Assembly: GCA_965237675.1 (NCBI GenBank)
Contig: OZ250150.1
Location: forward strand, 1,216,001 to 1,280,000
Reading direction: 5' to 3'
DNA: 64,000 nucleotides
Source: Candidatus Latescibacterota bacterium
Lineage (GTDB): Bacteria > Latescibacterota > UBA2968 > GCA-2709665
Below, piece by piece: positions 8,666 through 45,819 of the stretch (position 1 is the first letter of the stretch; the number at the start of each line of letters is the position of its first letter). The notes under the pieces are model-generated. The model did no database searches. It was not told the origin of the DNA and saw only the letters and a program-made list of their open reading frames with translations. The position numbers were made by a program, and so were the translations under genes.

Positions 8666-8670
8666 AACGC

Positions 8671-31323: not shown

Positions 31324-31363
31324 ATTCAAGGGTGTTTTTGGAAACAGGTTACAGGAAACCGTC

Positions 31364-31797: not shown

Positions 31798-31986
31798 GTG
31801 AGAGGAGAACCCGTGGCTGAGAACCGCGCGATTAAGCGTCAGAAGCAGCAGACGATCCAAGAGCGACTGGATGTTCTTCGACGGCGTGGGATCCTGGTGC
31901 GATCGGGAGCGTCAAAGCAAACGTTTCAGCCGGTGGCGCGTCGGCCGGGCGCCTTGGGGCGGTTCCTGGCTGAGCGTGGCGAGTAA
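31798..31986 (+). pseudogene. 5'-truncated Phd/YefM antitoxin, paralog of 41366-41644
   Basis: RGEPVAE...ERLD.L.RRG.LVRSGA...RRPGAL.RFLAERG matches the C-terminal two-thirds of the 41366 gene. Confidence 0.8.
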
Positions 31987-32031
31987 GCGCCTCTGATTCA
32001 GAAACCCCTTTTCAGCTATACTATTTACCCT

Positions 32032-32066
32032 GAACAGGCTTGCATAATGCAAGCCTGTTCTTTTTT
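32032..32066 (+). terminator. Intrinsic terminator-like hairpin; homolog at 41843-41877
   Basis: GAACAGGCTTGCA-TAA-TGCAAGCCTGTTC perfect 13-bp stem plus T6. Confidence 0.75.
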
Positions 32067-32178
32067 CTTCCACGTGCGTTATTTATTATCGATTTAAACT
32101 GTTTTCGATAATAATAAACCTCCTTTTCTTCACATGCGAAAACAAGAGAAGGCCTTCGCGCCTGCCGATGCCTCTCCA

Positions 32179-32207
32179 GTAGGGGCAGGTTTCAATCCTG
32201 CCCCTAC
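32179..32207 (+). repeat. GTAG-family REP palindrome
   Basis: GTAGGGGCAGG-TTTCAAT-CCTGCCCCTAC. Confidence 0.8.
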
Positions 32208-32350
32208 ATGCGTCTACCGGGCACTGTTTAGAACGCGAAAAGGCCATTCTCTGTTTTATTGCCATTTTGTGTTATATTGTTAGCGAACTGAACAGGAAAC
32301 GCGTATAGGGGTCGTCGTTATTTGCCCAATCGAAATCGTGGAGCGAACCG

Positions 32351-34504
32351 ATGAATCACAGTGAGATCGTCAGCTTTATCTGGGGCGTTGCGGACCTGAT
32401 CCGCGACAGCTTCAAGCGCGGCAAATACCAGGACGTCATTCTGCCTCTGACCGTGCTGCGCCGTCTTGACTGCGTCCTTGCTCCGACCAAGCAACGAGTG
32501 CTCAAACGCCAGGCGGAGTTGAGAGGTCGCGGCCTTGAAGATCTGAAGGCACAACTGCGCGAAACATCCGGCTTCGCATTCTACAACACTTCACGCTATG
32601 ACTTCGACACTTTGCTGGCCGATGCGCCCCAACTTGCCGCCAACCTGAGAAACTACATCGCCGGCTTCAGCGATAACATGCGCGAGGTGTTGGAACGATT
32701 CGACCTCGACAACACGATCAGCAAGCTCGACGAAGCGGGGCTGCTGTTCCAGGTGCTGGAGCGGTTCAAGAACGTCGACCTGCACCCCGATCTGATCGAC
32801 AACGCGACCATGGGGACGGTCTTCGAAGAGTTGATCCGCAGGTTCAACGAAGCCCTGGATGAGAATCCCGGTGAACACTTCACGCCGCGCGATGTTGTGC
32901 ATCTGATGGTGGATCTCATGCTCGCCGGTGAGAAAGACCGCATCGCCCGACCCGGCGTTGTGCGCAGTGTTTACGACCCGTGCTGCGGCTCCGGCGGCAT
33001 GTTGACCATCGCCAAGGAACACATTACAAGGGGCATGCGAAGCAACGGCGAAATCCTTCGCCCCGCCATCAATCCGGAGGCGGAGATCCACCTCTTCGGC
33101 CAGGAAGTGAACCCGGAGACGTGGGCGGTCTCAAAGTCTGACATGTATATGAAGGATCCGACGGGCCGCGACGCGGACGAAATCGTTTTTGGCAGCACGC
33201 TTTCAAACGATCGCCATGCCAGCCGCCACTTCGATTACCTGATAGCGAATCCGCCCTACGGCAAGGACTGGAAACGCGACAAGGCCGCGGTGGAGTCGGA
33301 ACATGACAGGGGCGCGGCCGGCCGTTTCGGCCCCGGACTCCCGCGCATAAGCGACGGGCAGACACTGTTCCTGCTGCACATGCTCGCTCACGTCCGGGCG
33401 CCGGACCAGGGAGGCGCGCGCATCGCAATCATCATGAACGGTTCGCCCCTGTTTACCGGCGACGCAGGCAGCGGCGAAAGCGAAATTCGCCGATACATCA
33501 TGGAGAACGACCTGCTGGAGGCGTTGATTGCGCTGCCCGAGCAGCTTTTCTACAACACCGGCATTGCAACCTACGTGTGGATTTTGAGTAACCGCAAGGC
33601 CCCGGAACGTCGGGGCAAGGTGCAGCTTATCGACGCCACGACCTTCTGGAAGCCAATGCGCCGGAGCCTGGGAGACAAGCGGCGCGAGATCCCGCCGGAA
33701 AAAGCAGACGAAGTACTGAAACTCCTGCGCGGCTTTCGGGATGGCGAGACGCGGAAGGTCTCCGAAGACGGCGAGGAAGAAGACAAAATCGTCAGCCGTG
33801 TTTTTCCGACCACACGGTTCGGGTATCGGAGAATTACGGTTGAACGGCCGCTACGGCTCAATTTCCAGGCGAACGCGGAACGCATCGCCCGGCTGCGCGA
33901 ACAAACAGGCTTTCAGAATCTGGCCAAATCGAAGAAGCGGGGAGATGCAGGCGCCAGGGAGGAGGCCGAAGGCCGCGCACACCAGCAGGACATTCTGACC
34001 ATGCTGGAGAGGCTGCCCGACACCCTTTACAAAGACCGGGAGGGATTTCTGGCAAGACTCGCGGAAGCGGCGCGGAGAGCCGGCATTAAACTCGCGGCGC
34101 CGGTGCAGAAGGCAATCCTCACGGCTCTTGGCGAGCGCGATGAAACGGCCGCGATCTGCCGGGGAAAGAACGGCGCGCCGGAACCCGACCCGGAGTTGCG
34201 TGACACCGAGCGCGTGCCGCTCGCCGATGGGGCGGACCCCGTGGATGGCGACGGCGTCCCAGCCAGCGTTCGCGCCTTTTTCGAGCGGGAGGTCAAACCT
34301 CACGTTCCCAGTGCCTGGATCGACACGTCCAAGCGCGATCATCGGGATGGAAAGGTCGGCTTTGTCGGCTACGAAATCAACTTCAACCGCTATTTCTATC
34401 GGTACAAGCCACCACGACCGCTCGCGGAGATCGAAGCCGATATCCAGGCTATCGAAAAGGACATAATGGAGATGTTGAAGGATATGTCCGGCGCAACGGC
34501 CTGA
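32351..34504 (+). CDS. hsdM: Type I restriction-modification methyltransferase subunit (N6-adenine)
   Basis: FIWGVADLIR, GEHFTPRDVV, YDPCCGSGGML, ANPPYG, GYEINFNRYFY. Confidence 0.96.
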   Translation: MNHSEIVSFIWGVADLIRDSFKRGKYQDVILPLTVLRRLDCVLAPTKQRVLKRQAELRGRGLEDLKAQLRETSGFAFYNTSRYDFDTLLADAPQLAANLRNYIAGFSDNMREVLERFDLDNTISKLDEAGLLFQVLERFKNVDLHPDLIDNATMGTVFEELIRRFNEALDENPGEHFTPRDVVHLMVDLMLAGEKDRIARPGVVRSVYDPCCGSGGMLTIAKEHITRGMRSNGEILRPAINPEAEIHLFGQEVNPETWAVSKSDMYMKDPTGRDADEIVFGSTLSNDRHASRHFDYLIANPPYGKDWKRDKAAVESEHDRGAAGRFGPGLPRISDGQTLFLLHMLAHVRAPDQGGARIAIIMNGSPLFTGDAGSGESEIRRYIMENDLLEALIALPEQLFYNTGIATYVWILSNRKAPERRGKVQLIDATTFWKPMRRSLGDKRREIPPEKADEVLKLLRGFRDGETRKVSEDGEEEDKIVSRVFPTTRFGYRRITVERPLRLNFQANAERIARLREQTGFQNLAKSKKRGDAGAREEAEGRAHQQDILTMLERLPDTLYKDREGFLARLAEAARRAGIKLAAPVQKAILTALGERDETAAICRGKNGAPEPDPELRDTERVPLADGADPVDGDGVPASVRAFFEREVKPHVPSAWIDTSKRDHRDGKVGFVGYEINFNRYFYRYKPPRPLAEIEADIQAIEKDIMEMLKDMSGATA

Positions 34505-34587
34505 GCTACGAGGTGCGTGTCAGAAGTTCTGGACGCGAAGAAAATTCGATTCGACCCAAAAGCCCGGTGGGTTTGAGGGTGATTTTG

Positions 34588-34654
34588 GTCTGTATCAAGT
34601 GGGGACGAGCCGGATCGCGGCCTCGGGTACGTGGAGATCGTCGTCTATAAATGA
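34588..34654 (+). pseudogene. Frameshifted 3' remnant of HigB toxin
   Basis: VCIKW... then VEIVVYK* in another frame, resembling the HigB C-terminus ICFxW...VEIVDYH; immediately upstream of higA. Confidence 0.55.
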
Positions 34655-34675
34655 TGCCAATCTGAGGTTCGGATT

Positions 34676-34990
34676 ATGGTACGTATTCCAACCGATCGTG
34701 TCCCCACTCATCCGGGTGAGATGTTACTGGAGGAGTTTCTGAATCCGTTGAATTTAACGCAGCGCGAATTGGCGACCGCCATTCATGTTCCCTATCAACG
34801 GGTCAACGAACTGGTGAACGGTCGACGCGGTATCACTCCGAGCACGGCCCTGCGACTGGGGAGGTGTTTCAACGTGTCTGCCGCGTTTTGGCTGAATCTC
34901 CAGCTTCGCTGGGATCTGTATCATGCCACCCGGTCCGAGGTCGAGGTACTGGAGGAGACTTCGCCACGTGACATGGAACTTAGTGCATAA
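34676..34990 (+). CDS. higA: HigA-family addiction module antitoxin
   Basis: PTHPGEMLLEEFL.P..LTQ..LA...RRGITPSTALRL...FWLNLQ. Confidence 0.92.
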   Translation: MVRIPTDRVPTHPGEMLLEEFLNPLNLTQRELATAIHVPYQRVNELVNGRRGITPSTALRLGRCFNVSAAFWLNLQLRWDLYHATRSEVEVLEETSPRDMELSA

Positions 34991-35024
34991 CGAGAATGTC
35001 ACGACGCATTAGACGGATTTTCTG

Positions 35025-35081
35025 TTGACAATTAAGCAAGAATACAATATAATGTCGGCAGTCCTTAATAAGATGCCGACA
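35025..35081 (+). promoter_or_regulatory. Consensus sigma70 promoter with overlapping inverted-repeat operator of abiE
   Basis: TTGACA-N17-TATAAT (35025-35053) followed by TGTCGGCA-N13-TGCCGACA. Confidence 0.85.
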
Positions 35082-35086
35082 ATTTT

Positions 35087-35698
35087 ATGAACATGCCTAC
35101 AATTCAACTCGACAGAGATCGCCTTCACAGCGCCGGCCTCGGTGTCTTCTTTCGTCCGAGCCAGATCAATGCGTTGGGGATCACGTACGACCAACTCCGC
35201 CGTTTGGTCTCAACCGGGGCCGTTGAGCGGGTCAACCGGGGCCTTTATAGGCTCGCCAGTGCGGAGCCGACTGAACATTACACACTCGCTGCCGTATGCG
35301 CACGTGTGCCCAATGCCGTCATTTGCCTGCTTTCGGCGCTCAGCTTTCACGAAATCGGAACTCGGCTGCCACACGAGGTCTGGATTGCGATTCCCCACAA
35401 GGCGAGACCCCCTCGCCTTCCGCAATTCCGAACCCGACTCATCAGGTTCAGCGGCGCCGCCTGGACCTATGGTGTGTCCGACACCGCATTCGAAGGCGTT
35501 CCGGCGCGAATAACCTCGCCCGCTCGCACGATCGTCGATTGTTTCCGATTCGAACACCTGATCGGACGCGAAACTGCTATTGAGGCATTGCAAGACGGTC
35601 TCCGGGGAAAAAAGGTGACGACCGGCGCCCTGCTGCGAACCCTTGAGGAATTGCCTTCGCGCCGGCTGAGCGCGGCCCTGGAAATAGGAATTATATGA
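35087..35698 (+). CDS. abiEi: Type IV TA antitoxin AbiEi
   Basis: G..ERVNRGLYRL, ICLLSALSFHEI, TSPARTIVDCFR. Confidence 0.9.
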   Translation: MNMPTIQLDRDRLHSAGLGVFFRPSQINALGITYDQLRRLVSTGAVERVNRGLYRLASAEPTEHYTLAAVCARVPNAVICLLSALSFHEIGTRLPHEVWIAIPHKARPPRLPQFRTRLIRFSGAAWTYGVSDTAFEGVPARITSPARTIVDCFRFEHLIGRETAIEALQDGLRGKKVTTGALLRTLEELPSRRLSAALEIGII

Positions 35699-36648
35699 TC
35701 ACCGATGTCGCGGCGTCCATCAGATCTCGCCTGTACAATAAGGCGAAAAAAAGTGGCATAGAGTTCCAGTTTTTTCTTGTGCGTTACGCCTGCGAAAGAT
35801 TCCTATACCGCCTCGGCGCCTGTCCAGTACGTGACCGGTTTATACTCAAAGGCGCAACTCTGCTTGCGGTTTGGATGGATGAACCCTACCGTGCTACTCG
35901 CGATATCGATTTGTTGGTGGCCTCCGGTGGCGCTGATGAAACGTCCGTCCGAGAAACCATGAAAACGATCTGCGATGTCCCCTGTCGCGAGGATGGCCTG
36001 GTTTTCGATCTCAATAGCTTGCGGATTTCTTCGATTCAATCGGGGCAAATGTTCCCGAGCCAACGCGCCAAGCTGAACTGTTATCTTGGAAAAGCGAGAA
36101 TTCTCACCCAGGTGGACTTTGGTTTCGGCGATGTCGTCACCTCTGGTGTTGAGCAAGCGAAACTAAAGACACTCATAGACGGTGTCCCCGCGCCCTCGCT
36201 GCTCGTTTATCCACTATCGACAAGCGTCGCCGAGAAGTTCGAAGCTATGGTGCGATTTGGGCATCGCAATAGCCGCATGAAGGACTTCCATGACATTTGG
36301 GCCCTGTCTGATCGGTTTTTCTTTGATGGCGAAAAACTCCGCGAAGCTATCCGGGACTGTTTCAGCCGGCGTGGCACGGATCTAAACTCAGAGCCTCCGG
36401 CTGCTCTCACTTCGTCGTTCTACTCAGACACTGACCGGAATAGGCTGTGGCGCAACTATCGGGTTGAGATGGGGCTTCTGACACCGCCGCCCGATTCTTT
36501 CGAAATCGTAGGTGAGCGCTTGTTGAGATTTCTTGAGCCTATCCGTGAAAGCATCCTGGCGGACAATTCGTTCGAGTTTTGTTGGCCCGCTGGCGGACCT
36601 TGGCGACCCGTTTCGGACAAGGACTGCGAAAACAGAGACCGTGCGTAA
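35695..36648 (+). CDS. abiEii: Type IV TA nucleotidyltransferase toxin AbiEii
   Basis: ERFLYRL, FILKGA, RATRDIDL, AEKFEAM...NSRMKDFHDI; ATGA coupling. Confidence 0.92.
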   Translation: MITDVAASIRSRLYNKAKKSGIEFQFFLVRYACERFLYRLGACPVRDRFILKGATLLAVWMDEPYRATRDIDLLVASGGADETSVRETMKTICDVPCREDGLVFDLNSLRISSIQSGQMFPSQRAKLNCYLGKARILTQVDFGFGDVVTSGVEQAKLKTLIDGVPAPSLLVYPLSTSVAEKFEAMVRFGHRNSRMKDFHDIWALSDRFFFDGEKLREAIRDCFSRRGTDLNSEPPAALTSSFYSDTDRNRLWRNYRVEMGLLTPPPDSFEIVGERLLRFLEPIRESILADNSFEFCWPAGGPWRPVSDKDCENRDRA

Positions 36649-36775
36649 TGCCGTCAGATACAAACATTGGGACGGCGTAACTCAGCGCAAGGAAAACGCC
36701 GCTAGGGCCGGAGCACTGCGGAGGTTGAAACCCAATCCGGCTTACAAGGCCTCGGGCGTCGAATGCCTCGCATAG
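36641..36775 (+). pseudogene. 5' remnant of a second hsdS
   Basis: RRLKPNPAYKASGVECL* resembles the HsdS N-terminus RRFKPYPAYKDSGVEWLG; same motif at the start of the 39728 gene. Confidence 0.7.
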
Positions 36776-36977
36776 ATTCAGTGGTATCGTGACGTCTCTG
36801 CCGGAAATCGGATTGCCTACGTCGCTAACAAACTTGAAATGCTGAAGGGTTTGCGCGAAGAATCGCCTGAGTGACATCATATGTCGGCAGTTACGATGAT
36901 GTGCCGACATTTCGTATAGTTCGCCAGGCTGCAATTCAACTGGCCAAATTCATCTCGCTACGTTAAGTAACGCTATT

Positions 36978-37097
36978 ATGTCCGAACTTGGTGCAACACA
37001 GATTCCCAAGCCTAGCGACGAGCAAGCCTTTGAGCGGTGCAATGTTACGCTTTATCAGAGGAGGATAGACGCTTGGAAGGCGACGTCAGGAGATTGA
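36978..37097 (+). pseudogene. N-terminal remnant of a PD-(D/E)XK (Mrr-like) nuclease-led defence gene
   Basis: MSELGATQIPKPSDEQAFERCNV resembles the IP.P.(D/N)..xFE.xC start of REase-fused defence proteins; similarity is lost after about 25 aa where the next gene begins. Confidence 0.45.
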
Positions 37098-38398
37098 TCG
37101 ACGATCCCCGGTTCCGGGCATACCATCGGGATTTCCTGAAACCAAGGGAATTCAACACCTTCGACGTTCTCCAGTACGCGGACTACGAAATCCGCCACAG
37201 CAACGTGTTGGCGTGGCTGCTCCGGCCCGGCGACACCCACGGTATCGGCGCACGGTTCCTGAAATGGTTTGTGGACCAGATCGATAAAGGGCTCGCGGCG
37301 GCGAATGCAGGGCCTCTTCCCGCAATCGGCTTTGAGGCGTCGAATGTCGCTGTCTGGAGAGAGCGAGACCATGTCGACATCACGGTCTTGTTCAAGAAAG
37401 AGCGGTGTTTGATCGCCATCGAGAATAAGACGGGACCGGCGTCTTCCGAGCATGTTGACCAGGTCAGGGGTTACGAGCGGAAGCTGCGCGGCAAGCACGA
37501 GGGACACACGGTGAAGTGCGTCCTTTTGACCACCTCGCCCGACGGAAGTGTGGACTTCCCAGGCCTTGTCCATGTTGGTTGGAAGTCGGTCCATGAAACC
37601 ATCGACAGTTTCCATTTGGAAGGCAGGTTCCAGTCTTGTGGCGTACGGGCCTTCGTCCTACAGTACCTTGAATTGGTCGAAAGGTGGTTTGGTTCCGCAG
37701 GAGTCGAGGGTTTCAAGAAGCTTCTTGACGACTATCACTCCATCTTGCAGAAGATGCGGCAGGTCCTGGACAAGGACGGCGATGGCGGTGTCCGTGGGAT
37801 GGCGCCGGAGGACCGGGCAGACTACGGCGACGCGCTTGTCATGCTGGTGAAGGCATCGAGACAGGATCCGGTGAAACTGCGACAGGCGGTGGCATATCGC
37901 CTCAGGGGACAAGGCTGCGAGCTCCATTTCACACAGAATAACAGTAACATGACTTATTGGTTGAACTGGCACGATACGGACCTTGCCGATATCGCGCGGA
38001 GACTGGGCTGCGGAAACTTCGCCCTCTCGTGGGGGATGACGTTCACCCATCACGAAGTCCGAGCGGGTTTCTATCTCTATCAAGAGAAGCCAGAGGAGCA
38101 GGCCTCGCTGGACCGGCTCAAGCATTTCCTGAAAGCGACGCCGATCAACAGACGTAAGCCGGACGAATACGTCATGCGGGACAATGGCTTCGGCTGGTAT
38201 CAGGTCTATGACCTGGAGGTCGTTTCCAGGGACGAGCTTGCCGGCATGTCAGGACATGAGGTCAAGGAGGAAGTGATCCGGAGACTGGAGAACTTCATGG
38301 GTTCGGACGACTCGGAGTACAGACGCATCGACGACTACTTCCAATGCCTCGCCTTCACACCCGGCGATTCGGCATCCGCGCGGGAGGATTCGCCATAG
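37073..38398 (+). CDS. PD-(D/E)XK nuclease family protein (PDDEXK_4-like)
   Basis: FNTFDVL...EIRHSNVLAWLL.P..THG...FL, HVDI...IAIENK; TTG start after GAGGAGG. Confidence 0.85.
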   Translation: MEGDVRRLIDDPRFRAYHRDFLKPREFNTFDVLQYADYEIRHSNVLAWLLRPGDTHGIGARFLKWFVDQIDKGLAAANAGPLPAIGFEASNVAVWRERDHVDITVLFKKERCLIAIENKTGPASSEHVDQVRGYERKLRGKHEGHTVKCVLLTTSPDGSVDFPGLVHVGWKSVHETIDSFHLEGRFQSCGVRAFVLQYLELVERWFGSAGVEGFKKLLDDYHSILQKMRQVLDKDGDGGVRGMAPEDRADYGDALVMLVKASRQDPVKLRQAVAYRLRGQGCELHFTQNNSNMTYWLNWHDTDLADIARRLGCGNFALSWGMTFTHHEVRAGFYLYQEKPEEQASLDRLKHFLKATPINRRKPDEYVMRDNGFGWYQVYDLEVVSRDELAGMSGHEVKEEVIRRLENFMGSDDSEYRRIDDYFQCLAFTPGDSASAREDSP

Positions 38399-38494
38399 CG
38401 GTTTGAAACTGCCGCTCCATTGAAGCGCCGAATCGGTGCTATATTGCTTTTGCGGTCTTGCGCGACAACTCGAGATCAAACGCTGGAGGGATCA

Positions 38495-38983
38495 ATGACA
38501 TTCGGATCCGCCGGTTCCCTGGTTTCCGCCGAGAGTAGCGCGGCCTCGGTCGCGCTACTGCTCGCCCTGCTCGCCGCGACCGGCTGCCGTGAATCGACGC
38601 TCGATCCGGATGTCCCCGAAAGCAACGTGGTGGTCGCCGACGACCGCGAACGGGGAGACGACCCCTGCGTCGTGAACTCGGCCGCCATCGGCGGACACCG
38701 GTTGACCATCGAAGTCTCGTACGCCGGCGGCTGCCGGAGGCACGACTTCACGCTGGTAATCTCGAAATCGTTCAGAGAGTCGGATCCAGTGCAACTTCCG
38801 GCCGTGCTCGCCCATAATGCGAACGGCGATCGCTGCGAGGCATGGCTGACCGAGTCCCACGTCTTCGACCTCGCCCTGGTCAGGACGCGCTATCAGCAGT
38901 TATACGGACCCGGTCCGGGCAAGGTCGTCCTTCGAATCGCGGGCGTGCCCGGTGACAACCTCTTGTACGAATTCGACGGATAG
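38495..38983 (+). CDS. Hypothetical lipoprotein
   Basis: Hydrophobic signal ending ATG-C lipobox; VSYAGGC..HDF.L...ESDPVQ...HNANGD.CEA paired-Cys motif. Confidence 0.7.
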   Translation: MTFGSAGSLVSAESSAASVALLLALLAATGCRESTLDPDVPESNVVVADDRERGDDPCVVNSAAIGGHRLTIEVSYAGGCRRHDFTLVISKSFRESDPVQLPAVLAHNANGDRCEAWLTESHVFDLALVRTRYQQLYGPGPGKVVLRIAGVPGDNLLYEFDG

Positions 38984-39016
38984 CACCGGGCGGGTCGCTC
39001 AACTCGAAACCGGCAA

Positions 39017-39518
39017 CTCCTGCTTTCTTCGATTGAACGCGACGAGAGCCCCGATCTGTTCAATTTACAGGCTCTATGTACTTATATCGGTCATACGGGT
39101 GAGGATCTTCAATCGCATACCGCCCTCGGGGCCCAGTTCATTAATGGCCTCTGGGCGAGCGCCCGACCTATTGTCTTGTCCGACGTTCCCGTTGATTCTA
39201 AGACTCAAAAAGCCACGGACCTGGTGTTCCGGGCGTTGATTGGTGATACCAATAAAGACGAGTGGCCCAAAAGGGCGGCTGCGCTCTTCCGCACGCTTGA
39301 CGAAGATCCAGGACGTTATCTTCTCCGCTGGTGCGAGGCGAAATTTCTGCCTGTCGATCAGATTCGAAAGATTCTGCGAGAAGAGATCCATTGAGTGGTC
39401 AATTGGGATTCTTATTGGGCGGGGTAAACCGGGCGAACCTCAATGGTTCGACGTCAGGACAACCGAAATGACATTGCGTGACCTTACAGAATCACAAAGC
39501 CGGCCGCGAAATCGTTGA
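39017..39518 (+). pseudogene. Start-less, frameshifted fragment of an unidentified gene
   Basis: Frame open from 38984 to 39394 without ATG, with protein-like sequence continuing in a second frame to 39518. Confidence 0.35.
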
Positions 39519-39571
39519 GCACAGCCGATAACCGATCATGGCCCTGGCCCCTGTGCACGAAGACACCCACC

Positions 39572-39600
39572 GGAGGGGCAGGTTTGAAACCTGCCCCTCC
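39572..39600 (+). repeat. REP palindrome abutting the RAYT remnant
   Basis: GGAGGGGCAGGTTT-G-AAACCTGCCCCTCC. Confidence 0.8.
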
Positions 39601-39720
39601 GAAGAACACGATATATGGAACCACGCAGCACTTAATCGCATTCGTCAGGGCATCATCGACAACCCGGCGCAATGGCGTGAAGAACCTGAAAATCCAGCGT
39701 TACATGAAGAAAGGCCATAG
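39601..39720 (+). pseudogene. C-terminal remnant of REP-associated tyrosine transposase (RAYT/TnpA-REP)
   Basis: EHDIWNHAALNRIRQGIIDNPAQWREEPENP resembles the RAYT consensus EHIIRNE..L..IRQYIIxNP..W.ED.ENP; the catalytic Tyr position reads Gly. Confidence 0.75.
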
Positions 39721-39727
39721 GGCCGTC

Positions 39728-41185
39728 ATGACACCCGCTCGCCTCCACCCTTACGCTGCATACAAGGACTCCGGCATCGTCTGGCTGAGAAAGATCCCTG
39801 CGCATTGGGTAGTGACGCGGTTGAAGTCGTTTGCCACAGTTCAGCTTAGCAACGTAGACAAGAAGTCCACGGAAGGGCAAGATGCCGTTCAGCTATGCAA
39901 CTATGTGGACGTGTACTACAACGAACGAATTGACGATCGTGTTGATTTCATGTCTGCAACTGCGACGTCGGAACAGGTACGTCGTTTTTCCCTCCAGTCA
40001 GGCGATGTATTAATAACGAAGGATTCGGAGACCTGGACGGACATAGCTGTTCCAGCGGTGGTCTCCGAGGATCTGCCTGGTGTATTATGCGGGTACCACT
40101 TGGCTCACATCCGGCCGGGCCAGCATTGTAATGGCGGTTTCCTTAGCAGATTGTTTGCTGCGATTGGACCCCGAGATCAGTATCACATTTCGGGTAACGG
40201 TATCACACGGTTCGGTCTAACCGGCGATTCCGTTCGTGCCGGAGTGTTTGCACTCCCACCCCTCCCCGAACAACGTGCGATTGTCGCCTTCCTCGACCGC
40301 GAGACGGCCAGGATCGACGCCCTCGTGGCCAAAAAGGAGCCGTTGATCGAGTTGCTCCAGGAAAAGCGCACCGCCCTCATTAGCCACGCCGTCACGAAAG
40401 GCCTTCCTGCCGACGCTGCGGCGCAGGCAGGCCTCGACCCCAACGTGCCAATGAAGGACTCGGGCGTCGAATGGCTGGGGACAATTCCGGCGCATTGGGA
40501 GGTGAAGCGGCTAAAACATCTCGTAATTGCGCCGCTCAAATACGGTGCGAACGAGCCAGCAGTTTACACCGATAATTATCTCCCAATTCGTATTACCGAC
40601 ATACGGGAAGATGGGACATTGCGAGACGACAGCTTTAGGTCGATCCCAGAGGAGATTGCTAAACCCTATCTTCTTGCCGGAGGCGACATTTTGTTTGCAC
40701 GTAGCGGGGCAACCGTCGGAAAGACTTTCCGGTACAACGCCAGTTGGGGCAAAGCAGCACATGCCCGGTATCTGATTCGTGCACGTTTTGATGGATCCGT
40801 CGTTGAGTCTGTTTTCGTTCAGTATTTTACACAAACTCAAAGATACGCTGATTGGCTTCTAAGCAACTTGATTCAAGCCACAATTCAAAATGTGAGCGCC
40901 GAGAGCTACGCATCCCTGAGCGTTCCTTTTCCACCTCTTCCCGAACAACGCGCCATCGCCGACTTCCTTGATCGCGAGACGGCCAGGATCGACACCCTCG
41001 TCCGCAAAGTCCGAGAAGCCATCGACCGTCTTAACGAACTCCGCACGGCACTCATCTCGGCAGCTGTAACAGGCAAGATCGACGTGCGCGAGGCGCCGGC
41101 GCGGGCGCCGGATGAATCCGGGAACAGCACGGCAGACGGCAGCGTCATGCCTGGCGCATCGGGCGACATGGGGCGAGATAGATGA
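39728..41185 (+). CDS. hsdS: Type I RM specificity subunit with two TRDs
   Basis: YKDSG..WL..IPAHW twice; PPLPEQRAI..FLDRETARID.LV twice; ALISAAVTGKIDVR. Confidence 0.93.
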   Translation: MTPARLHPYAAYKDSGIVWLRKIPAHWVVTRLKSFATVQLSNVDKKSTEGQDAVQLCNYVDVYYNERIDDRVDFMSATATSEQVRRFSLQSGDVLITKDSETWTDIAVPAVVSEDLPGVLCGYHLAHIRPGQHCNGGFLSRLFAAIGPRDQYHISGNGITRFGLTGDSVRAGVFALPPLPEQRAIVAFLDRETARIDALVAKKEPLIELLQEKRTALISHAVTKGLPADAAAQAGLDPNVPMKDSGVEWLGTIPAHWEVKRLKHLVIAPLKYGANEPAVYTDNYLPIRITDIREDGTLRDDSFRSIPEEIAKPYLLAGGDILFARSGATVGKTFRYNASWGKAAHARYLIRARFDGSVVESVFVQYFTQTQRYADWLLSNLIQATIQNVSAESYASLSVPFPPLPEQRAIADFLDRETARIDTLVRKVREAIDRLNELRTALISAAVTGKIDVREAPARAPDESGNSTADGSVMPGASGDMGRDR

Positions 41186-41330
41186 AACAAGGCGAAATAG
41201 TCTTTGAGGCGCGCGTGGCCGTCGAAGGTGGTGTCTCGTCAGGCGCGAAGTTGATTCCACGGATACCGCATTGTCCCGCTCAACACTGCCTAACTCACGG
41301 ACACACGGTTCGATAGCGCAAACGATGCGC

Positions 41331-41359
41331 ATGACAGGACTAGTCTGACTAGTTATATT
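41331..41359 (+). promoter_or_regulatory. Promoter with palindromic operator for phd (probably leaderless mRNA)
   Basis: ATGACA-N17-TATATT enclosing ACTAGTC-T-GACTAGT; ATG 6 nt after the -10 box, no RBS. Confidence 0.6.
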
Positions 41360-41365
41360 CACGCC

Positions 41366-41644
41366 ATGACACTGATCTACTCAACCTACGAAGCAAAAGC
41401 GCGGTTTTCGGAGGTCATCCGGCACGTGCGGAAAGGCAAGACCGTCACGGTTTCTTATCGAGGAGAGCCCGTGGCTGAGATCCGCGCGATCCAGCGTCAC
41501 CGGCAGCAGACGATCGAAGAGCGACTGGATGATCTCCAACGACGCGGGGTCTTGGTGCGATCGGGAGCGCCTGAGCAGACGCTTCAGCCAGTGGCGCGTC
41601 GGCCGGGAGCCCTGGCGCGTTTCCTGGCTGAGCGTGGCGATTGA
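41366..41644 (+). CDS. Phd/YefM (prevent-host-death) antitoxin
   Basis: YSTYEAKARFSEVIR.V..G..V.VSYRGEPVAEI. Confidence 0.9.
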   Translation: MTLIYSTYEAKARFSEVIRHVRKGKTVTVSYRGEPVAEIRAIQRHRQQTIEERLDDLQRRGVLVRSGAPEQTLQPVARRPGALARFLAERGD

Positions 41645-41797
41645 GCGTCGCATACGTCGATACGTCGGTGTTGGCCACCATCGCCTTCGACGAACAGAAC
41701 CCCGGGCCAACTCTTGTTCCTCACGCTTGACGACCGACAGAGCGCTGTGGCCACCGCGCTCGGCTTTGTCACTCCGGAGGGACTGTATTCGCCATGA
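41641..41797 (+). pseudogene. PIN/VapC toxin with the central region deleted
   Basis: N-terminus LSVAYVDTSVLATIAFDE joined out of frame to C-terminus FLTLDDRQSAVATALGF. Confidence 0.8.
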
Positions 41798-41842
41798 GGC
41801 TCGCGGTTTCAATAACCTCTTTCCAGTACGCCACTGACCCGG

Positions 41843-41877
41843 GAACTGGCCTGTATCGTGGAAGCCAGTTCTTTTTT
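41843..41877 (+). terminator. Terminator-like hairpin homologous to 32032-32066
   Basis: GAACTGGC...GCCAGTTC plus T6. Confidence 0.65.
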
Positions 41878-42074
41878 CTTGCCCATTTGCATAATATTAT
41901 TAGTGAATTGAAGCAACAGCGCTAACAAGGTTGACTCTTATTTTCCTATGTGCAGACAAGGTACGGTCGTGACATCCGGCACTAATGGGCGACGCCGACC
42001 CCACGGCCGATATTCGACAGACCGAGCGCTCATCATCTGGATTCAGGCGAAGTCGACTGGGCGGGGATGAAAGA

Positions 42075-42115
42075 TTGACATCTCCAATGAGGATGTGTAT
42101 TATTTATACACATCC
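42075..42115 (+). promoter_or_regulatory. sigma70 promoter with operator for the RHH-VapC operon
   Basis: TTGACA-N17-TATTAT; perfect inverted repeat GGATGTGTAT-N5-ATACACATCC over the -10 box. Confidence 0.8.
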
Positions 42116-42139
42116 CGCCGTGAACCAGGAGGTGCACAA

Positions 42140-42415
42140 ATGGCTAGAATTCAACTGGTGTTATCCGACGAGGACCGCGACCGCTTCGTTCATCAGGCGC
42201 GAAGAGAGGGTAAGACCTTAAGCGAGTGGCTGAGAACCGCAGCCCGCCGCCGGCTGGAGGAACAGCAACGGTCCCATCCCTTCGAGTCGCCGGCGGACCT
42301 CGAGGCGTTCTTTCGCGCGTGCGACGCGTTGGATGGTCCCGCGCGAGAACCTGAATGGGATGAGCACCTGGCGGTCATCGAGGAATCCCGCAGAAGGGGT
42401 ATATCCAGCACATGA
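42140..42415 (+). CDS. Ribbon-helix-helix (CopG-like) antitoxin
   Basis: MARIQLVLSDED...AR.EGKTLSEWLR; AGGAGG RBS; coupled to vapC. Confidence 0.85.
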   Translation: MARIQLVLSDEDRDRFVHQARREGKTLSEWLRTAARRRLEEQQRSHPFESPADLEAFFRACDALDGPAREPEWDEHLAVIEESRRRGISST

Positions 42416-42804
42416 TCTTTGTCGACACAAATGTCTTCATGTACGCAGTTGGCATGCCGCATCCGCTCCGGGATACCGCCCGGGGCTTTTTCAACGAGTG
42501 CACTCGAAACCGCACGCCTCTGTGCACGTCGGCGGAAGTGCTGCAGGAGCTGGCGCACGCTTACCTTCCGGTGGCGCGGCTGCAAACGCTCGATGCGGCG
42601 CTTTCGCTGATCGCCAGATCCGGCGTGGAGGTATGGCCGCTCGAAGAAGAAGATGTCATACTGGCGCGGCAGCTCTACGAACAGCATCCCACCCTGGACG
42701 CCAGAGACCTCTGCCACCTGGCCAGCTGCCGGCGGCGCGGCGTACGCGAGGTTTGGACCTTCGATAAGGCCCTGGGTGCCGTTATCGGCGGGACAGCAGG
42801 GTGA
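42412..42804 (+). CDS. vapC: VapC/PIN-domain toxin (intact)
   Basis: IFVDTNVFMY, TSAEVLQE, RDLCHLA, TFD acidic PIN residues. Confidence 0.92.
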   Translation: MIFVDTNVFMYAVGMPHPLRDTARGFFNECTRNRTPLCTSAEVLQELAHAYLPVARLQTLDAALSLIARSGVEVWPLEEEDVILARQLYEQHPTLDARDLCHLASCRRRGVREVWTFDKALGAVIGGTAG

Positions 42805-43020: not shown

Positions 43021-44385
43021 ATGTCAAATCTAAAGCGTGTTGAATCGTGTTCCCTCGACCGCATTGAGAGGATGAGAAACCTGGTCACGGGGGAGATCAA
43101 GAAGATCGAAGGCCAGTTGGCCGAGGAAGAACGAAAAATCGACCTGATGGCCAGAAGTGCGGACACGGTCGCCCTGAGCAAGCGGCACGGCCATTACGAA
43201 CTGAACCTGGATACGGCCGAATCGCGGATTTCGACGTTGAACGAGGAAAAACAGGAATTGGAGGACAAGGCCCGGATCATCGAGCAGGCCTTCCAGAAGA
43301 AACACCTGATGGATAGGCAGGCCAGCGTATTGGGCAGCGCCTGGCGCGTGAACGTCAAGGACATAATCATCTTTCTTCTCATTCTTTTCCTGATCTCGAT
43401 CCTTGTCGTCGACCTGCTCGGCATCGGTACCAGCGGCGGCGGAGCAGTCGCAAAGGCGGAAGTAGAAAAGGGAAAGATCCGTAAGATTGTCATTCAGAAA
43501 ATGGGCGCCGGGTATGTGCGCGTGAACATAGACATTGTGGACACGGACGGGGCCGGCGCGCTCGTTTCCGGGCATGTGGCCGGAGGAAAATTGACAGGCG
43601 CGGACGTCGTCGATGGCGGGGGAAATTACACGAAACCGGTTGTGGAGGTACATCCTCACTTCGCGGTGAGCACGTTGTGGATCTTCTGGATCATCGACGT
43701 GGTATGCTGCACCATTTTCATGGCCAACTTCTTCTTCGAGCACAAACTTGCCGCTTCCAAGAGGTGGTATTGGAAGAACAACTGGATCGACTTCATCACG
43801 TCCATCCCGCTTCCGCCGGTGCAGGTCATCGCAGCCTCCGGCAACATAGGTGTCGTGCGCCTGGGGCGTCTGCTCCGGGCCGTACGCATTTTGCGGGCGC
43901 TGAGGTTATTTCGCATCGGGCTGTTTTTCTGGCGGGGCATGGACCACCTGAGCACCACGCTGGACGTGCGGCTCCTCAAGCGGTCCCTTCTTTACGGCCT
44001 GTTATCGCTCGTGTTCGGCGCATGTGTTTTTATGGGTCTGGAACGCATGGAGTCCGGTTCGGGATTCTGGGCGAGCCTCTGGTGGAGCTTTACCACGCTT
44101 GTTACGGGTGGTTACGCAGACATCCACAATCCCGAGACCGCTTTCGGCAGAATCCTCACTGTTTTTCTGGTAATAACCGGAATGGTCCTTGTGGGTGTTT
44201 TCACAGCCACGCTGACGAGCATCCTCGTCAAGGACGAGGACTCCTTGAAAGCAGAGGAGCTCGACGAGCAGATCGGGATCGTAACGAAGATCCAGGAAGA
44301 GATAAAAACCACCAACCGGCGCCTGGACAGGCTTGAAGGAAGCGTCCGCGAAATCCGCGACGCCGTTACGGACCGGGAGCAATAG
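43021..44385 (+). CDS. 6-TM voltage-gated-like cation channel with N-terminal coiled coil and S1-S2 repeat insert
   Basis: NWIDFITSIP (S3), RLGRLLRAVRILRALRLFR (S4), WWSFTTLVTGGYAD pore, C-terminal coiled coil. Confidence 0.85.
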   Translation: MSNLKRVESCSLDRIERMRNLVTGEIKKIEGQLAEEERKIDLMARSADTVALSKRHGHYELNLDTAESRISTLNEEKQELEDKARIIEQAFQKKHLMDRQASVLGSAWRVNVKDIIIFLLILFLISILVVDLLGIGTSGGGAVAKAEVEKGKIRKIVIQKMGAGYVRVNIDIVDTDGAGALVSGHVAGGKLTGADVVDGGGNYTKPVVEVHPHFAVSTLWIFWIIDVVCCTIFMANFFFEHKLAASKRWYWKNNWIDFITSIPLPPVQVIAASGNIGVVRLGRLLRAVRILRALRLFRIGLFFWRGMDHLSTTLDVRLLKRSLLYGLLSLVFGACVFMGLERMESGSGFWASLWWSFTTLVTGGYADIHNPETAFGRILTVFLVITGMVLVGVFTATLTSILVKDEDSLKAEELDEQIGIVTKIQEEIKTTNRRLDRLEGSVREIRDAVTDREQ

Positions 44386-44541: not shown

Positions 44542-45819
44542 ATGTCAGTTTCCAGGAAGCACGATCCCTACGCGGCCTTCCGCATCGTCAACTACCGGCG
44601 ATACATCCTGGGCTGGTTTTTCGCCATCGCGGGCAACCAGATCCAGAGCATCGCGATCGGTTGGGAGATTTACCAACGCACCGGTCAGGCGCTCTCCCTT
44701 GGCCTGGTCGGGCTCGCCCAGGCCCTGCCCACCATCATCCTGGCCCTGCCCGCAGGTTACCTGGCGGACAGATTCGACCGCCGCCGGGTGGTCATCTTCA
44801 GCATGCTGGGCACGACCCTGACGTCGCTCGGGCTCCTGGCGCTCTCGCTTTCGGAGGGGCCGGTTCTCCTGATGTACGCCCTGCTGGCGCTGGATGCCGC
44901 GGCCACGTGCCTGGGCCGCCCGGCCAGAACAGCCCTTGTGCCCCTGCTCGTCCGGCGCGAGATCTTTCCGATTGCCGTTACCTGGAACACCAGCCTGATG
45001 CAGATGGCCGGGGTCGTCGGCCCGGCCCTGGGCGGCTTTGTCGTGATGTTCAACGTTCACTCCGCCTACGCGCTCAGTGCGGCGAGCACCCTCGTTTTCG
45101 TCGTCCTGCTCACGCGGGTGGACTTCCGTGCAGAGCCCCAAAGAGCGGAACCCGCTTCGATCGCGACCCTGCTGGCGGGCATCCGCTACGTCTGGCGCAC
45201 CCGCCTGATCCTTTCCCTGATGGCGCTGGACATGTTGGCCGTGTTGCTGGGCGGCGCCGTTTACCTGTTGCCCATCTATGCGGAGGATATTCTCCGCGTC
45301 GGCCCGCAGGGATTCGGCTGGCTTCGCGCCGCCCCGGGCGTCGGCGCCTTCTGCATGGCGCTCCTCCTGGCCTACCTGCCTCCGATGCAGCGCGCCGGCC
45401 GGAACCTCCTGCTGGCCGTGGCGGGATTTGGCGCGGCCACCATCGTCTTCGGCCTCTCTCAATCCTTCTGGCTCTCCCTGGCGATGCTTTTCCTCACCGG
45501 CGCCTTCGACAACGTCAGTATGGTCGTCCGGCACACACTCGTTCAGCTTCTCACAACCAATCGGATGCGAGGCCGCGTGCTGGCGGTCAACTACGTGTTC
45601 ATCGGCGCCTCCAATGAATTGGGCGGCCTGGAATCCGGCCTGGCGGCCCATTGGTTCGGGCCGGTCGTCTCGGTGGTCAGCGGCGGAATCGGAACCGTCC
45701 TCGTGGTTCTCGGCGCCGCAGCCGGCGTTACCGGCCTTCGACGCTTCGGCGCCCTCCACGAAGCCAGGCCGCAGGAAGAGGAGCCGGCAGTGGATGCCTC
45801 CGGGAAGGAGGGACCCTGA
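44542..45819 (+). CDS. MFS transporter (EntS/macrolide efflux-like)
   Basis: About 12 TM segments, GYLADRFDRRR motif A, MRGRV. Confidence 0.92.
   Translation: MSVSRKHDPYAAFRIVNYRRYILGWFFAIAGNQIQSIAIGWEIYQRTGQALSLGLVGLAQALPTIILALPAGYLADRFDRRRVVIFSMLGTTLTSLGLLALSLSEGPVLLMYALLALDAAATCLGRPARTALVPLLVRREIFPIAVTWNTSLMQMAGVVGPALGGFVVMFNVHSAYALSAASTLVFVVLLTRVDFRAEPQRAEPASIATLLAGIRYVWRTRLILSLMALDMLAVLLGGAVYLLPIYAEDILRVGPQGFGWLRAAPGVGAFCMALLLAYLPPMQRAGRNLLLAVAGFGAATIVFGLSQSFWLSLAMLFLTGAFDNVSMVVRHTLVQLLTTNRMRGRVLAVNYVFIGASNELGGLESGLAAHWFGPVVSVVSGGIGTVLVVLGAAAGVTGLRRFGALHEARPQEEEPAVDASGKEGP

Follow-up and report, generated by a model that had tools for sequence, protein, structure and literature searches.

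The gene P0001 lies in the window, by which we mean the whole 64,000-nucleotide stretch of DNA analysed here. It probably encodes a chromosomal, vertically maintained voltage-sensor cation channel of an uncharacterised bacterial family, one subclade of which carries an Ig-like periplasmic module in the loop between S1 and S2. Phage defence, the role proposed in the earlier note, is probably not its function. The case is made by the architecture of the protein, the identity of the repeat in the module, the single gain of that module, the selection acting on the gene, and its surroundings in related genomes.

Architecture of the channel and its pore

The reading frame is real, as seen in the open-reading-frame list and its translation, and spans 454 residues. 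The features of the gene are the following.

43021..44385, + strand: channel gene P0001 (open-reading-frame list; Pfam Ion_trans and Ion_trans_2)
43021..43350, + strand: cytoplasmic N-terminal helical hairpin, residues 1-110 (AlphaFold2 model)
43351..43422, + strand: S1 transmembrane helix, residues 111-134 (modelled as a hydrophobic helix over 107-133; lines up with S1 of homologues that lack the insert)
43423..43659, + strand: S1-S2 insert, residues 135-213, a predicted periplasmic six-stranded β module with two repeat units (alignment, insert-only model, phage matches)
43429..43518, + strand: repeat unit 1, residues 137-166 (P0173 repeat HMM, 10.0 bits, i-E 3.3e-5)
43534..43641, + strand: repeat unit 2, residues 172-207 (P0173 repeat HMM, 14.8 bits, i-E 1.1e-6)
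43660..43935, + strand: S2-S4 of the voltage sensor, residues 214-305 (S4 arginines, countercharges, dN/dS 0.078)
43936..44235, + strand: S4-S5 linker, S5, pore helix, filter, and S6, residues 306-405 (Pfam Ion_trans_2 at 329-403, dN/dS 0.042, filter tally)
44104-44121, + strand: filter TGGYAD, residues 362-367 (translation)
44236..44382, + strand: cytoplasmic C-terminal helix running on from S6, residues 406-454 (continuous helix 374-453 in the model)

Judged from its sequence, P0001 is a six-transmembrane, Kv-like voltage-sensor channel of an uncharacterised bacterial family. Residues 220-402 match Pfam Ion_trans (PF00520; 50.9 bits, cut-off 25), and residues 329-403 match Ion_trans_2 (PF07885; 42.2 bits, cut-off 22.5). 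A Foldseek search of the PDB with the full model returned 55 matches at E ≤ 1e-3, led by 7ukf_A (E 2.4e-5), and among the matches listed (the best 45 of the 55) every one is a Kv channel. Kv4.2, Kv2.1, KCNQ2, and Kv1.2 were all matched, at E values from 2.4e-5 to 6e-4. The listed matches have low TM scores (0.17-0.23), a consequence of the extended shape of the monomer model.

In the AlphaFold2 model, the N-terminus folds into two helices (residues 12-45 and 62-104) with a β-hairpin (52-61) between them, at a block pLDDT of 61-90, and the alignment shows this region to be conserved in the wider channel family. The earlier note had described a coiled coil of about 100 residues at this position. 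A helical hairpin of that length is indeed predicted, but the coiled coil itself finds no footing in Pfam, where the hairpin belongs to no family and the coiled-coil entries are non-significant (E 0.15-0.58). At the other end of the protein, the C-terminal helix is a putative tetramerising coiled coil.

The voltage sensor is complete. S4 carries seven arginines, one at every third position (280, 283, 286, 289, 292, 295, and 298), in line with the S4 arginine repeat first noticed from the sequence, and its acidic partners are D226 and E240 in S2 and D257 in S3. In a family alignment of 65 sequences, the S4 arginines and these three acidic residues are either invariant or at least 90% conserved. 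Model confidence is low for the S3-S4 region and S4 (AlphaFold2 pLDDT 47-65).

The pore string WWSFTTLVTGGYAD corresponds to residues 354-367 of P0001. Its filter reads T-G-G-Y-A-D (residues 362-367) and departs from the K+ signature T-[VI]-G-[YF]-G-D. The canonical TVGYGD is kept in 30 more distant relatives found in the representative search, so the exchanges of Val for Gly and of the second Gly for Ala are real changes with respect to canonical K+ channels, and the earlier observation of two altered signature residues is borne out. Among 121 close homologues, 117 have TGGYAD and four have TGGYPD, while insert-less representatives carry TGGFGD (33), TGGFAD (23), or TGGYAD (6), and the family as a whole ranges over TGG[FY][GAPST]D. 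Since the same variants occur in insert-less members, the filter change is not tied to the insert, and the odd filter TGG[FY][GA]D is a family-wide trait that is independent of it. W354, W355, T362, G363, G364, and D367 are invariant or nearly so in the 65-sequence alignment, and the pore is the most constrained part of P0001 across 11 orthologues. The series T-G-G-[F/Y]-[G/A/P]-D represents a natural set of substitutions at two classic positions of the K+ signature and could inform studies of selectivity.

The S1-S2 insert and its phage-like repeat

Aligned with insert-less homologues, P0001 has about 79 additional residues placed exactly between S1 and S2 (residues 135-213; 43423-43659), in agreement with the insert of about 75 residues first proposed. 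The insert consists of two copies of a 37-residue repeat. An HMM of this repeat, for which the phage-like giant protein P0173 with its 56 copies was the only training material, scores the two units at 10.0 and 14.8 bits and the insert at 24.3 bits together, whereas the best of 1000 shuffled inserts reached 11.3 bits. The earlier description of two similar units therefore stands as far as both are recognised by the P0173 HMM; their mutual likeness is weak, with identity at 9 of 31 aligned positions and not one off-diagonal match in a self-BLAST of the whole protein, even at E 100.

Within its own genome, the insert is the sole significant match to the P0173 HMM among 62,952 six-frame segments (E 7.8e-5; next 0.21). 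A second, weak match to the insert in the same genome (E 0.006, with an internal TGA) was not supported by the repeat HMM and was set aside. Pfam and NCBIfam hold no family for the repeat: P0173 matches no family in either, and residues 135-213 of P0001 are left uncovered.

The insert-only model has a pLDDT of 90.6. A sequence search of solved structures with the single insert gave no matches, and Foldseek of the insert model against the PDB gave a best E value of 0.66, with generic Ig-like sandwiches at noise level; these matches establish no solved relative, from which it does not follow that the fold is new. In the ESM Atlas, the best score was 0.83, under the lead level. Across 13 diverse inserts, the only invariant positions are Gly, Ala, and Tyr, so that a candidate binding site could not be located.

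The resemblance to phage structural repeats pointed out in the earlier note holds up. PHROG profiles of baseplate-wedge and virion-structural proteins match residues 135-211 (E 3.1e-6, 1.2e-5, 1.4e-5, and 2.7e-4). With the insert as query, tblastn retrieved structural genes of T4-like cyanophages only (11/11 records, E 6e-4 to 9e-3). Foldseek of the insert model against BFVD, with a limit of E ≤ 1e-3, returned 21 viral proteins whose TM scores reach 0.85, both sides of this comparison being predictions. The more specific likeness to tail-sheath proteins fell away, with one weak row so named (E 0.021).

The repeat is not confined to phages. It occurs in 17 of 301 Verrucomicrobiota genomes, in open frames of 655-9178 residues, one of which also contains Big_7 and He_PIG domains and adjoins a secretin gene, and in phage-like giant frames in two MAGs of the same class as the present genome (G093 and G118). 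Because giant bacterial frames also carry the repeat, the proposal that the insert is a captured phage module is unsupported. A phage origin of the whole channel was considered separately and rejected: of 50,697 phage records, three match the core (Lactobacillus phages, in the pore only, at 32-34% identity), and the eight IMG/VR loci found, at 27-31% identity, do not reach the insert.

Family history, genomic context and competing explanations

The channel family counts 4159 representatives when E ≤ 1e-3 is required and 416 when the limit is E ≤ 1e-10; most members are 360-410 residues long and have no insert. When the tree is computed from S2-S6 alone, a single clade of 24 rows (SH-aLRT 93) takes in all 21 repeat-positive rows, which shows that the family gained the insert essentially once. 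The insert is conserved across channels of Verrucomicrobiota and of MAGs whose titles read Latescibacterota or Gemmatimonadota. Within the genus, 14 of 15 genomes contain a full-length orthologue; the gene is missing from the 97% complete genome G007 and is thus dispensable there. Distribution across the phylum is patchy, with the channel in 13 of 21 genomes of family f1 (all of one genus), 36 of 76 of f4, and none of 31 of f2, a pattern that fits some horizontal transfer and would be unusual for a strictly housekeeping gene. Over 11 orthologues, dN/dS is 0.19 for the insert and 0.16 for the whole gene, compared with 0.078 for S2-S4 and 0.042 for the pore. The insert is thus under purifying selection with no signal of diversification, these being gene-wide pairwise estimates from which a few positively selected sites would escape.

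The surroundings of the gene include the following features.

31126..31201, + strand: tRNA-Lys(CTT), the proximal border of the variable region (ARAGORN)
31802..41880, no strand assigned: variable defence cassette with type I M and S subunits, AbiEi/AbiEii, and a PDC-S26-like nuclease (PADLOC, Pfam, direct repeats)
42095..42804, + strand: VapB-like open frame and PIN toxin gene, between the cassette and the channel (Pfam PIN, E 5.3e-18)
44542..45819, + strand: MFS_3/EntS-like transporter, a conserved downstream neighbour in the genus (Pfam MFS_3, E 5.4e-36)

The cassette is bracketed by two pairs of direct repeats (31802-31989 with 41460-41647, and 32032-32069 with 41843-41880), and the channel gene lies outside it. 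Cassette content differs among ten relatives. Upstream of the channel, a VapB-like match is present in six of the ten and a PIN match in one. PADLOC assigns the neighbouring genes to MTase_I, AbiEi, AbiEii, PDC-S26, and Specificity_I, and PADLOC-DB 2.0, which covers systems described up to 2023, matches the channel to no family. As an observation that counts against reading the channel as a core gene, it directly adjoins toxin-antitoxin (TA), restriction-modification (RM), and Abi genes, and the edges of variable regions can hold defence genes.

Downstream, the order channel-MFS-PD40 is fixed in all ten relatives, with the channel always at its head and variable content upstream; in nine of them, the channel and MFS matches are 6-18 nt apart. 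The NCBIfam EntS match of the MFS gene falls under its cut-off. The PD40/TolB-like neighbour is a protein of 1059 residues whose repeats suggest a periplasmic location. Farther out, MoeA, MoaC, and tRNA-Lys flank one side, and ATP-sulfurylase, ClpP, and URO-D the other. Four metatranscriptome runs, all from a single study, yielded RNA-library contigs that span 43789-44397 and run on into the MFS gene. Such contigs are not proof of transcription; none covers 42000-43788, an interval over which they cannot show absence. A scan of 42700-44700 found no promoter-like and one terminator-like element, the latter on the minus strand, under the shuffle mean.

In other lineages, the insert-bearing loci that were examined show no recognised defence genes next to the channel; the neighbours annotated there either serve metabolism or have no known function (sulfatase, DUF1501, Zn-ADH, formate-THF ligase, PLP decarboxylase, TonB receptor, ribosome hibernation factor, and similar). 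Orthologues of 74% identity in other genera lie between formate-THF ligase and PLP decarboxylase, and the neighbours of the Verrucomicrobiota members differ again. The one ambiguous neighbour is an SF1 helicase, at locus L064. The earlier note had placed the channel in a defence island and suggested a neighbourhood analysis of its homologues. The island reading comes down to adjacency, and the housekeeping contexts of the homologues take support away from a defence role. Guilt by association does not make the channel an island member, as it is fixed while its upstream region varies and defence genes do not recur beside it at the loci examined elsewhere.

Several other explanations bear on these data. 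One is that the pore is not that of a K+ channel, either because Gly for Val, with the second Gly replaced by Ala (by Pro in some relatives), makes it pass Na+ or Ca2+ or renders it non-selective, or because the protein is mainly a voltage-sensing scaffold. We regard this as possible, though unlikely: the T-V-G-Y-G signature is unmet, both by TGGYAD here and by TGGYPD in four close homologues, and the strings TGGFGD, TGGYAD, and TGGYGD were absent from the literature searched, with TGGFAD in one unrelated paper only, but conservation is strongest at the pore helix and filter, which argues for a working conduction pathway, and the Thr, central Gly, aromatic residue, and Asp of the K+-channel motif are all retained. 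Quite unlikely is a genus-specific envelope unit, in which the channel is tethered through its periplasmic module to either the MFS exporter or the PD40/TolB-like protein and ion flux is coupled to export or another envelope process. The fixed gene order and close spacing, the contigs bridging channel and MFS gene in four runs, and the predicted periplasmic location of the PD40 protein would all suit such a unit; the linkage is nevertheless limited to one genus, with other neighbours in the 74%-identity orthologues and the Verrucomicrobiota members, and in the S2-S6 tree the insert is far older than this gene order.

The earlier note had made P0001 a candidate single-gene anti-phage sensor-effector in which the insert gates a non-selective channel. 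In such a scheme, the module would recognise a phage part, for instance by pairing with baseplate repeats, and open a poorly selective pore, so that depolarisation aborts the infection. That the module truly is a repeat of phage baseplate and virion proteins, that phage-like giant frames bearing it exist in MAGs of the same class, that the gene borders on TA, RM, and Abi genes, deviates from the K+ signature in its filter, and can be dispensed with by one genome of its genus all fit this scheme. We nonetheless consider it very unlikely, since the gene stands outside the repeat-bracketed cassette in a housekeeping synteny shared by ten of ten relatives, recognised defence genes are missing beside the insert-bearing channels at the loci examined from other lineages, PADLOC gives no match, and insert-less members share the filter variants. 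The insert also evolves at a dN/dS of 0.19 with invariant positions that are merely structural (Gly, Ala, and Tyr), and the complete voltage sensor has been retained, which a phage-gated pore would not need. Still less likely is a variant in which the channel is a chromosomally fixed abortive-infection switch, its repeats acting as a periplasmic decoy or detector that pairs with identical baseplate or tail repeats, such that binding at S1-S2 opens the sensor and a weakly selective pore collapses the membrane potential.

The layout of the family begins with a helical hairpin in the cytoplasm, at the N-terminus, and goes on with six transmembrane helices, whose voltage sensor has its full set of S4 and countercharge residues, a K+-type pore with T-G-G-[F/Y]-[G/A]-D, and a C-terminal helix. 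Under the favoured reading of P0001 as a core voltage-sensor cation channel, four subunits would assemble around the pore, with the C-terminal helix aiding assembly. Depolarisation would move S4 and open S6, and the altered filter would pass monovalent cations, probably K+ with weakened selectivity. The module, predicted as an Ig-like β fold of about 80 residues made of two 37-residue repeats of the kind present in phage baseplate and virion proteins and in giant bacterial frames, would sit in four periplasmic copies atop the peripheral voltage sensors. There, the modules may bind an envelope component, such as a glycan or partner protein, or may shield or tune the S3-S4 paddle. The physiological role would then be ion or membrane-potential homeostasis rather than phage defence.

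To our knowledge, folded extracellular domains in the S1-S2 loop of a voltage sensor have not been described for prokaryotic channels. P0001 offers a natural test case of how a voltage sensor can be tuned or anchored by a module that faces outwards. It also provides a first cellular setting, tethered to a membrane, for the repeat with which giant phage structural proteins of unknown function are filled. For the discovery of phage defence systems it carries a caution: despite its phage-like domain and its place bordering a tRNA hot spot, the gene is best read as a core gene.

Comparison with known systems

RexB of RexAB and ZorAB of Zorya are membrane-depolarising anti-phage effectors. The likeness of P0001 to these, and to the CARF-linked pores Csx23 and Chp1, is conceptual only: a membrane protein able to dissipate the potential is encoded beside defence genes. 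Unlike P0001, the RexAB, Zorya, and Csx23/Chp1 systems use separate sensors or else second-messenger domains, and none is known to be a voltage-sensor K+-type channel.

The insert shares its repeat with phage structural proteins. By sequence, the repeat is that of PHROGs 2885, 438, and 708 (all baseplate wedge subunit) and 701, 19630, and 4406 (all virion structural protein), at E 3e-6 to 3e-4, and in tblastn it shares 32-36% identity over about 75 residues with cyanomyovirus genes annotated as structural protein, gp8, or VrlC. In predicted fold, the ten best rows give TM scores of 0.73-0.85 and an rmsd of about 1-3 Å over 77-90 aligned columns, and the glycine pattern and G-x-G-Y motif are common to the insert and the phage repeats. 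Unlike the phage proteins, P0001 has two units in a non-virion membrane channel, whereas the phage-like giant P0173 has 56. In the available portions of two papers, VrlC is placed at double-layered baseplates without an established function (PMC4621102, PMC7029224), and those portions do not describe the 37-residue repeat. The Ig-like insertion domain D3* of Dpo31, the tail-spike depolymerase of the marine podovirus Carin-1 (PDB 28lx, 28mg, 8ck1), matches the insert non-significantly (E 0.068) and is not among the 50 best Foldseek rows for it; this domain has about 100 residues and a function that is only speculated to be carbohydrate-related (PMC13317679).

The channel itself compares with Kv1.2, Kv2.1, Kv4.2, and KCNQ2, with which it shares six helices, an arginine-rich S4 (seven in P0001), acidic partners in S2 and S3, and a pore helix followed by a T-x-G-aromatic-x-D filter, even though identity to solved Kv chains is only 18-25%. 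It differs from them in having TGGYAD in place of TVGYGD, and an N-terminal helical hairpin and a C-terminal helix instead of a T1 domain. It also differs in its S1-S2 loop, which is predicted to hold a folded β module of about 80 residues.

Channel architecture and filter

The channel, P0001, is encoded by a single gene:

43021-44385 (+): channel gene, ORF encoding 454 residues

Pfam places Ion_trans on residues 220-402 (50.9 bits against a cut-off of 25) and Ion_trans_2 on residues 329-403. S4 carries seven arginines, one at every third position across residues 280-298, and the acidic residues of the sensor are D226 and E240 in S2 and D257 in S3. A 65-sequence family alignment shows each of these residues invariant or conserved to at least 90%, and the voltage sensor is complete. 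An AlphaFold2 model built with this alignment (mean pLDDT 76.5; S3-S4 and S4 are its low-confidence parts, pLDDT 47-65) begins with a helical hairpin in which a small beta-hairpin links helices 12-45 and 62-104. S1 (107-133), six beta strands within residues 143-213 and the other helices follow, and a single long helix (374-453) runs from S6 to the C-terminus. Foldseek matched the full model to Kv4.2, Kv2.1, KCNQ2, Kv1.2 and Kv3.1 in the PDB (E 2.4e-5 to 6e-4); the monomer model is extended, which keeps the TM scores low. The channel is a member of the six-transmembrane voltage-gated superfamily. Loop charges give no clear sidedness: the S2-S3 loop holds four lysines and arginines, but the stretch before S1 holds only two against one acidic residue. 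We infer a periplasmic position for the insert from its place between S1 and S2 in a sensor of Kv type.

Residues 354-367 hold the pore string on which the earlier note based an altered filter; the filter itself is TGGYAD. The alteration is real, but it is not tied to the insert. When 1.84 billion representatives were searched exhaustively with HMMER, 4159 proteins passed E<=1e-3 and 416 of them E<=1e-10. Most near relatives have 360-410 residues and lack the S1-S2 insert, sharing with the channel the N-terminal hairpin, six helices and C-terminal helix. Insert-less representatives carry TGGFGD (n=33), TGGFAD (n=23) or TGGYAD (n=6), while 117 of 121 close homologues have TGGYAD and four have TGGYPD. 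The altered filter thus marks the family as a whole, with Val uniformly replaced by Gly and the second Gly able to vary to Ala, Pro, Ser or Thr. Canonical TVGYGD occurs in 30 more distant matches. In P0119-P0121 and one more close homologue, proline takes the place of the second filter glycine, a naturally occurring change that is extreme for a K+-type filter. Two insert-less family paralogues share an 8-kb MAG contig of a Candidatus Poseidoniia archaeon (L101, 1650-2800 and 5346-6390).

The channel lacks the K+ signature, so we file it as a Kv-like cation channel with no ion preference assigned. That the pore is not K+-selective seems to us rather doubtful, and would be compatible with a housekeeping role. 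Of the strings TGGFGD, TGGYAD, TGGYGD and TGGFAD, the first three were absent from the 8.4 million papers and preprints searched and TGGFAD appeared only in an unrelated chemistry paper. A narrow literature search turned up neither this channel family nor any prokaryotic channel with a folded S1-S2 domain.

The insert and its 37-residue repeat

Alignment with insert-less relatives delimits the insert to residues 135-213. Its halves are weakly alike (9/31 positions identical in register), and whole-protein self-BLAST gave no off-diagonal match between them. The representative search with the channel also found P0173, a protein of 3161 residues with 23 matching stretches. P0173 matches phrog_701 'virion structural protein' (E 1.4e-126) as well as baseplate-wedge, tail-fibre and head-closure PHROG families, and from these profile matches is phage-like. 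It contains 56 copies of a 37-residue unit. An HMM trained on nothing but these copies detects two units in the channel, at 137-166 and 172-207 (24.3 bits in total; the best of 1000 shuffled inserts reached 11.3 bits), which assigns both halves to one repeat family despite their weak mutual likeness. Among 62,952 six-frame segments of the organism's genome, the channel is the only significant repeat match (E 7.8e-5; next 0.21).

The earlier note likened the insert to phage tail-sheath and baseplate repeats. The likeness to baseplate and structural proteins held up by three routes, whereas tail sheath appeared in one row only, at E 0.021. Baseplate-wedge and virion structural PHROG profiles match residues 135-211 (E 3.1e-6, 1.2e-5, 1.4e-5 and 2.7e-4). 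A tblastn search of 50,697 phage records returned 11, all T4-like Synechococcus phages (32-36% identity, E 6e-4 to 9e-3), in genes annotated as structural protein, gp8 baseplate wedge or VrlC. Modelled confidently by itself (pLDDT 90.6, pTM 0.78), the insert superimposed on predicted viral proteins with 21 matches at E<=1e-3, TM up to 0.85 and a best rmsd of ~1 A; those with names are cyanophage structural proteins, a 'baseplate wedge initiator', a neck protein and a Stenotrophomonas phage protein. In both sequence and fold, the insert matches the phage 37-residue repeat. For a solved relative, a sequence search with the single insert gave 0 matches and Foldseek against the PDB a best E of 0.66.

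The insert profile matches 50/168 genomes of the phylum, with 49 matches in channel-sized frames and two in giant frames (genomes G093 and G118). Both giant frames match virion-structural PHROGs, and an endolysin gene lies near one. The loci, in MAGs of the window's class, are L122, the whole 5.3-kb contig G093:C272, and L123:1-3468 in G118:C1, whose contig also carries the endolysin-like gene (L123 7814-8467). They may be phages or prophages of this lineage.

The repeat did not prove specific to phages. Among 301 Verrucomicrobiota genomes the profile matches 18, one through a channel and 17 through frames of 655-9178 residues, the 9178-aa frame being in G269. Four such loci were examined (L125-L128, in G434, G350, G341 and G419; frames of 2092-4278 aa with 3-10 repeat copies): a 3142-residue frame also holds Big_7, He_PIG and PD40 domains and adjoins a secretin gene, and another has tail-fibre-like neighbours. 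Found in phage proteins and giant bacterial frames, the repeat counts as a general extracellular building block, common to phage virion proteins and probably also to giant bacterial surface proteins.

Genomic neighbourhood

Gene order around the channel
MoeA, then MoaC
31126-31201: tRNA-Lys(CTT)
HicB-like ORF
32351-34504: type I methyltransferase
AbiEi/AbiEii, then PDC-S26-like PD-(D/E)XK protein
39515-41185: type I specificity subunit
Phd/YefM-like ORF, then VapB-like ORF and PIN
channel
MFS_3 transporter, then 1059-residue PD40/TolB-like protein
HNH protein, ATP sulfurylase, ClpP, URO-D

The AbiE and PDC-S26-like nuclease genes separate the methyltransferase from the specificity subunit, and no HsdR-like ORF was found among those scanned at 31.2-43 kb. 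The 9.7-kb RM/AbiE/PDC-S26 cassette is bracketed by 188-nt direct repeats (31802-31989 and 41460-41647, 86% identical) and again by terminator-like hairpin copies (32032-32069 and 41843-41880). It looks like an insertion by recombination between duplicated TA-locus sequence. The distal 188-nt copy overlaps the Phd/YefM-like antitoxin ORF (41366-41644). A 31-nt palindromic element, possibly REP-like, occurs three times in and around the island (31295-31325, 32179-32209 and 39572-39602; 87-100% identical).

A full-length channel is present in 14/15 genomes of the genus and in none of 26 other genomes of the same search. MFS and PD40 genes follow it in 10/10 relatives examined, with channel and MFS matches 6-18 nt apart in 9/10, while the content between the MoaC/tRNA side and the channel varies, being AbiEi alone in some, HsdS alone in others, or else fragments or nothing. 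The conserved block thus opens with the channel and borders a tRNA-Lys hot spot. The HNH_4-domain ORF downstream of PD40 (49658-50782, -; 374 aa) is conserved in 6/10 relatives at 71-81% identity, and so belongs to the core block and not to the island.

Metatranscriptome contigs from four runs of one study (95-99% identical) cover 43789-44397 and join 44397 to 44551, inside the MFS gene, skipping 153 nt (44398-44550) that are single-copy in the genome. The junction fits the tight channel-MFS spacing of relatives, and the skipped segment looks like a strain-level indel that also shifts the MFS start. These RNA-library contigs hint at channel expression, proving neither transcription nor a single transcript.

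Evolution, selection and proposed working

A maximum-likelihood tree of 87 rows, computed on S2-S6 alone without the insert columns, places all 21 repeat-positive rows inside one 24-row clade (SH-aLRT 93). The clade's other members are P0123, repeat-negative with a diverged insert in the family alignment, and P0126/L090, two identical Roseibacillus persicicus sequences that have no insert and whose genome the insert profile does not match. The pattern is explained by one gain and one loss. Insert-bearing loci come from MAGs labelled Candidatus Latescibacterota or Gemmatimonadota (70-86% identity), one Pseudomonadota MAG (53%) and Verrucomicrobiota (42-47%). Within the phylum, the insert-bearing channel occurs in 13/14 genomes of one genus of family f1 and 0/7 of its other genera, in 36/76 genomes of f4 and in 0/31 of f2, a patchiness that suggests transfer between families or repeated loss.

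Across 11 orthologues of the genus, dN/dS was 0.161 for the whole gene: 0.042 in the pore, 0.078 in S2-S4, 0.171 in S1, 0.191 in the insert and 0.26-0.27 in the terminal helices. Only Gly, Ala and Tyr are invariant across 13 diverse inserts, and purifying selection on the scaffold maintains the module. The protein combines a highly constrained K+-type pore, its filter family-specific, with terminal helical domains and a folded, conserved S1-S2 module.

We consider a housekeeping channel the likely identity of this protein. The earlier note had proposed instead a single-gene anti-phage sensor-effector, in which a captured phage module gates a non-selective channel. The phage-like repeat and the adjacent RM/AbiE cassette speak for this proposal; however, no PADLOC model matched the channel, it does not co-vary with the island, and gene-wide dN/dS in the 11 orthologues gave no sign of an arms race. 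We regard a defence role as very unlikely. That the channel forms a genus-specific unit together with the MFS and PD40 genes agrees with their fixed order in relatives, and strikes us as improbable, if slightly less so. Orthologues 74% identical in other genera adjoin formate-THF ligase, PLP decarboxylase and TonB receptor genes. Neighbours in Verrucomicrobiota and Planctomycetota include sulfatases, DUF1501, PSD1/PSCyt proteins, Zn-dehydrogenase, 3-keto-disaccharide hydrolase, a GluR0-like channel and DUF2201, and those in the Pseudomonadota MAG are a ribosome hibernation factor, DUF2339 and, at a single locus, an SF1 helicase. The GluR0-like ligand-gated channel gene (SBP_bac_3 and Lig_chan; L072:7374-8234, +), in a Verrucomicrobia single-cell assembly, lies directly upstream of an insert-bearing homologue (8244-9650).

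As a housekeeping channel, the subunits would form a tetramer that opens on depolarisation and passes monovalent cations, with Gly363 and Ala366 probably loosening selectivity. The four modules, on the peripheral sensors, may bind an envelope glycan or partner; alternatively, they could cover the S3-S4 paddle and tune gating. What suggests glycan binding is the Ig-like shape together with a parallel in Dpo31, a marine podovirus tail-spike. Against solved structures, the profile of 13 diverse inserts makes a single match, suggestive though non-significant (E 0.068), to Dpo31 residues 440-506, where both G-x-G-Y motifs fall in register.
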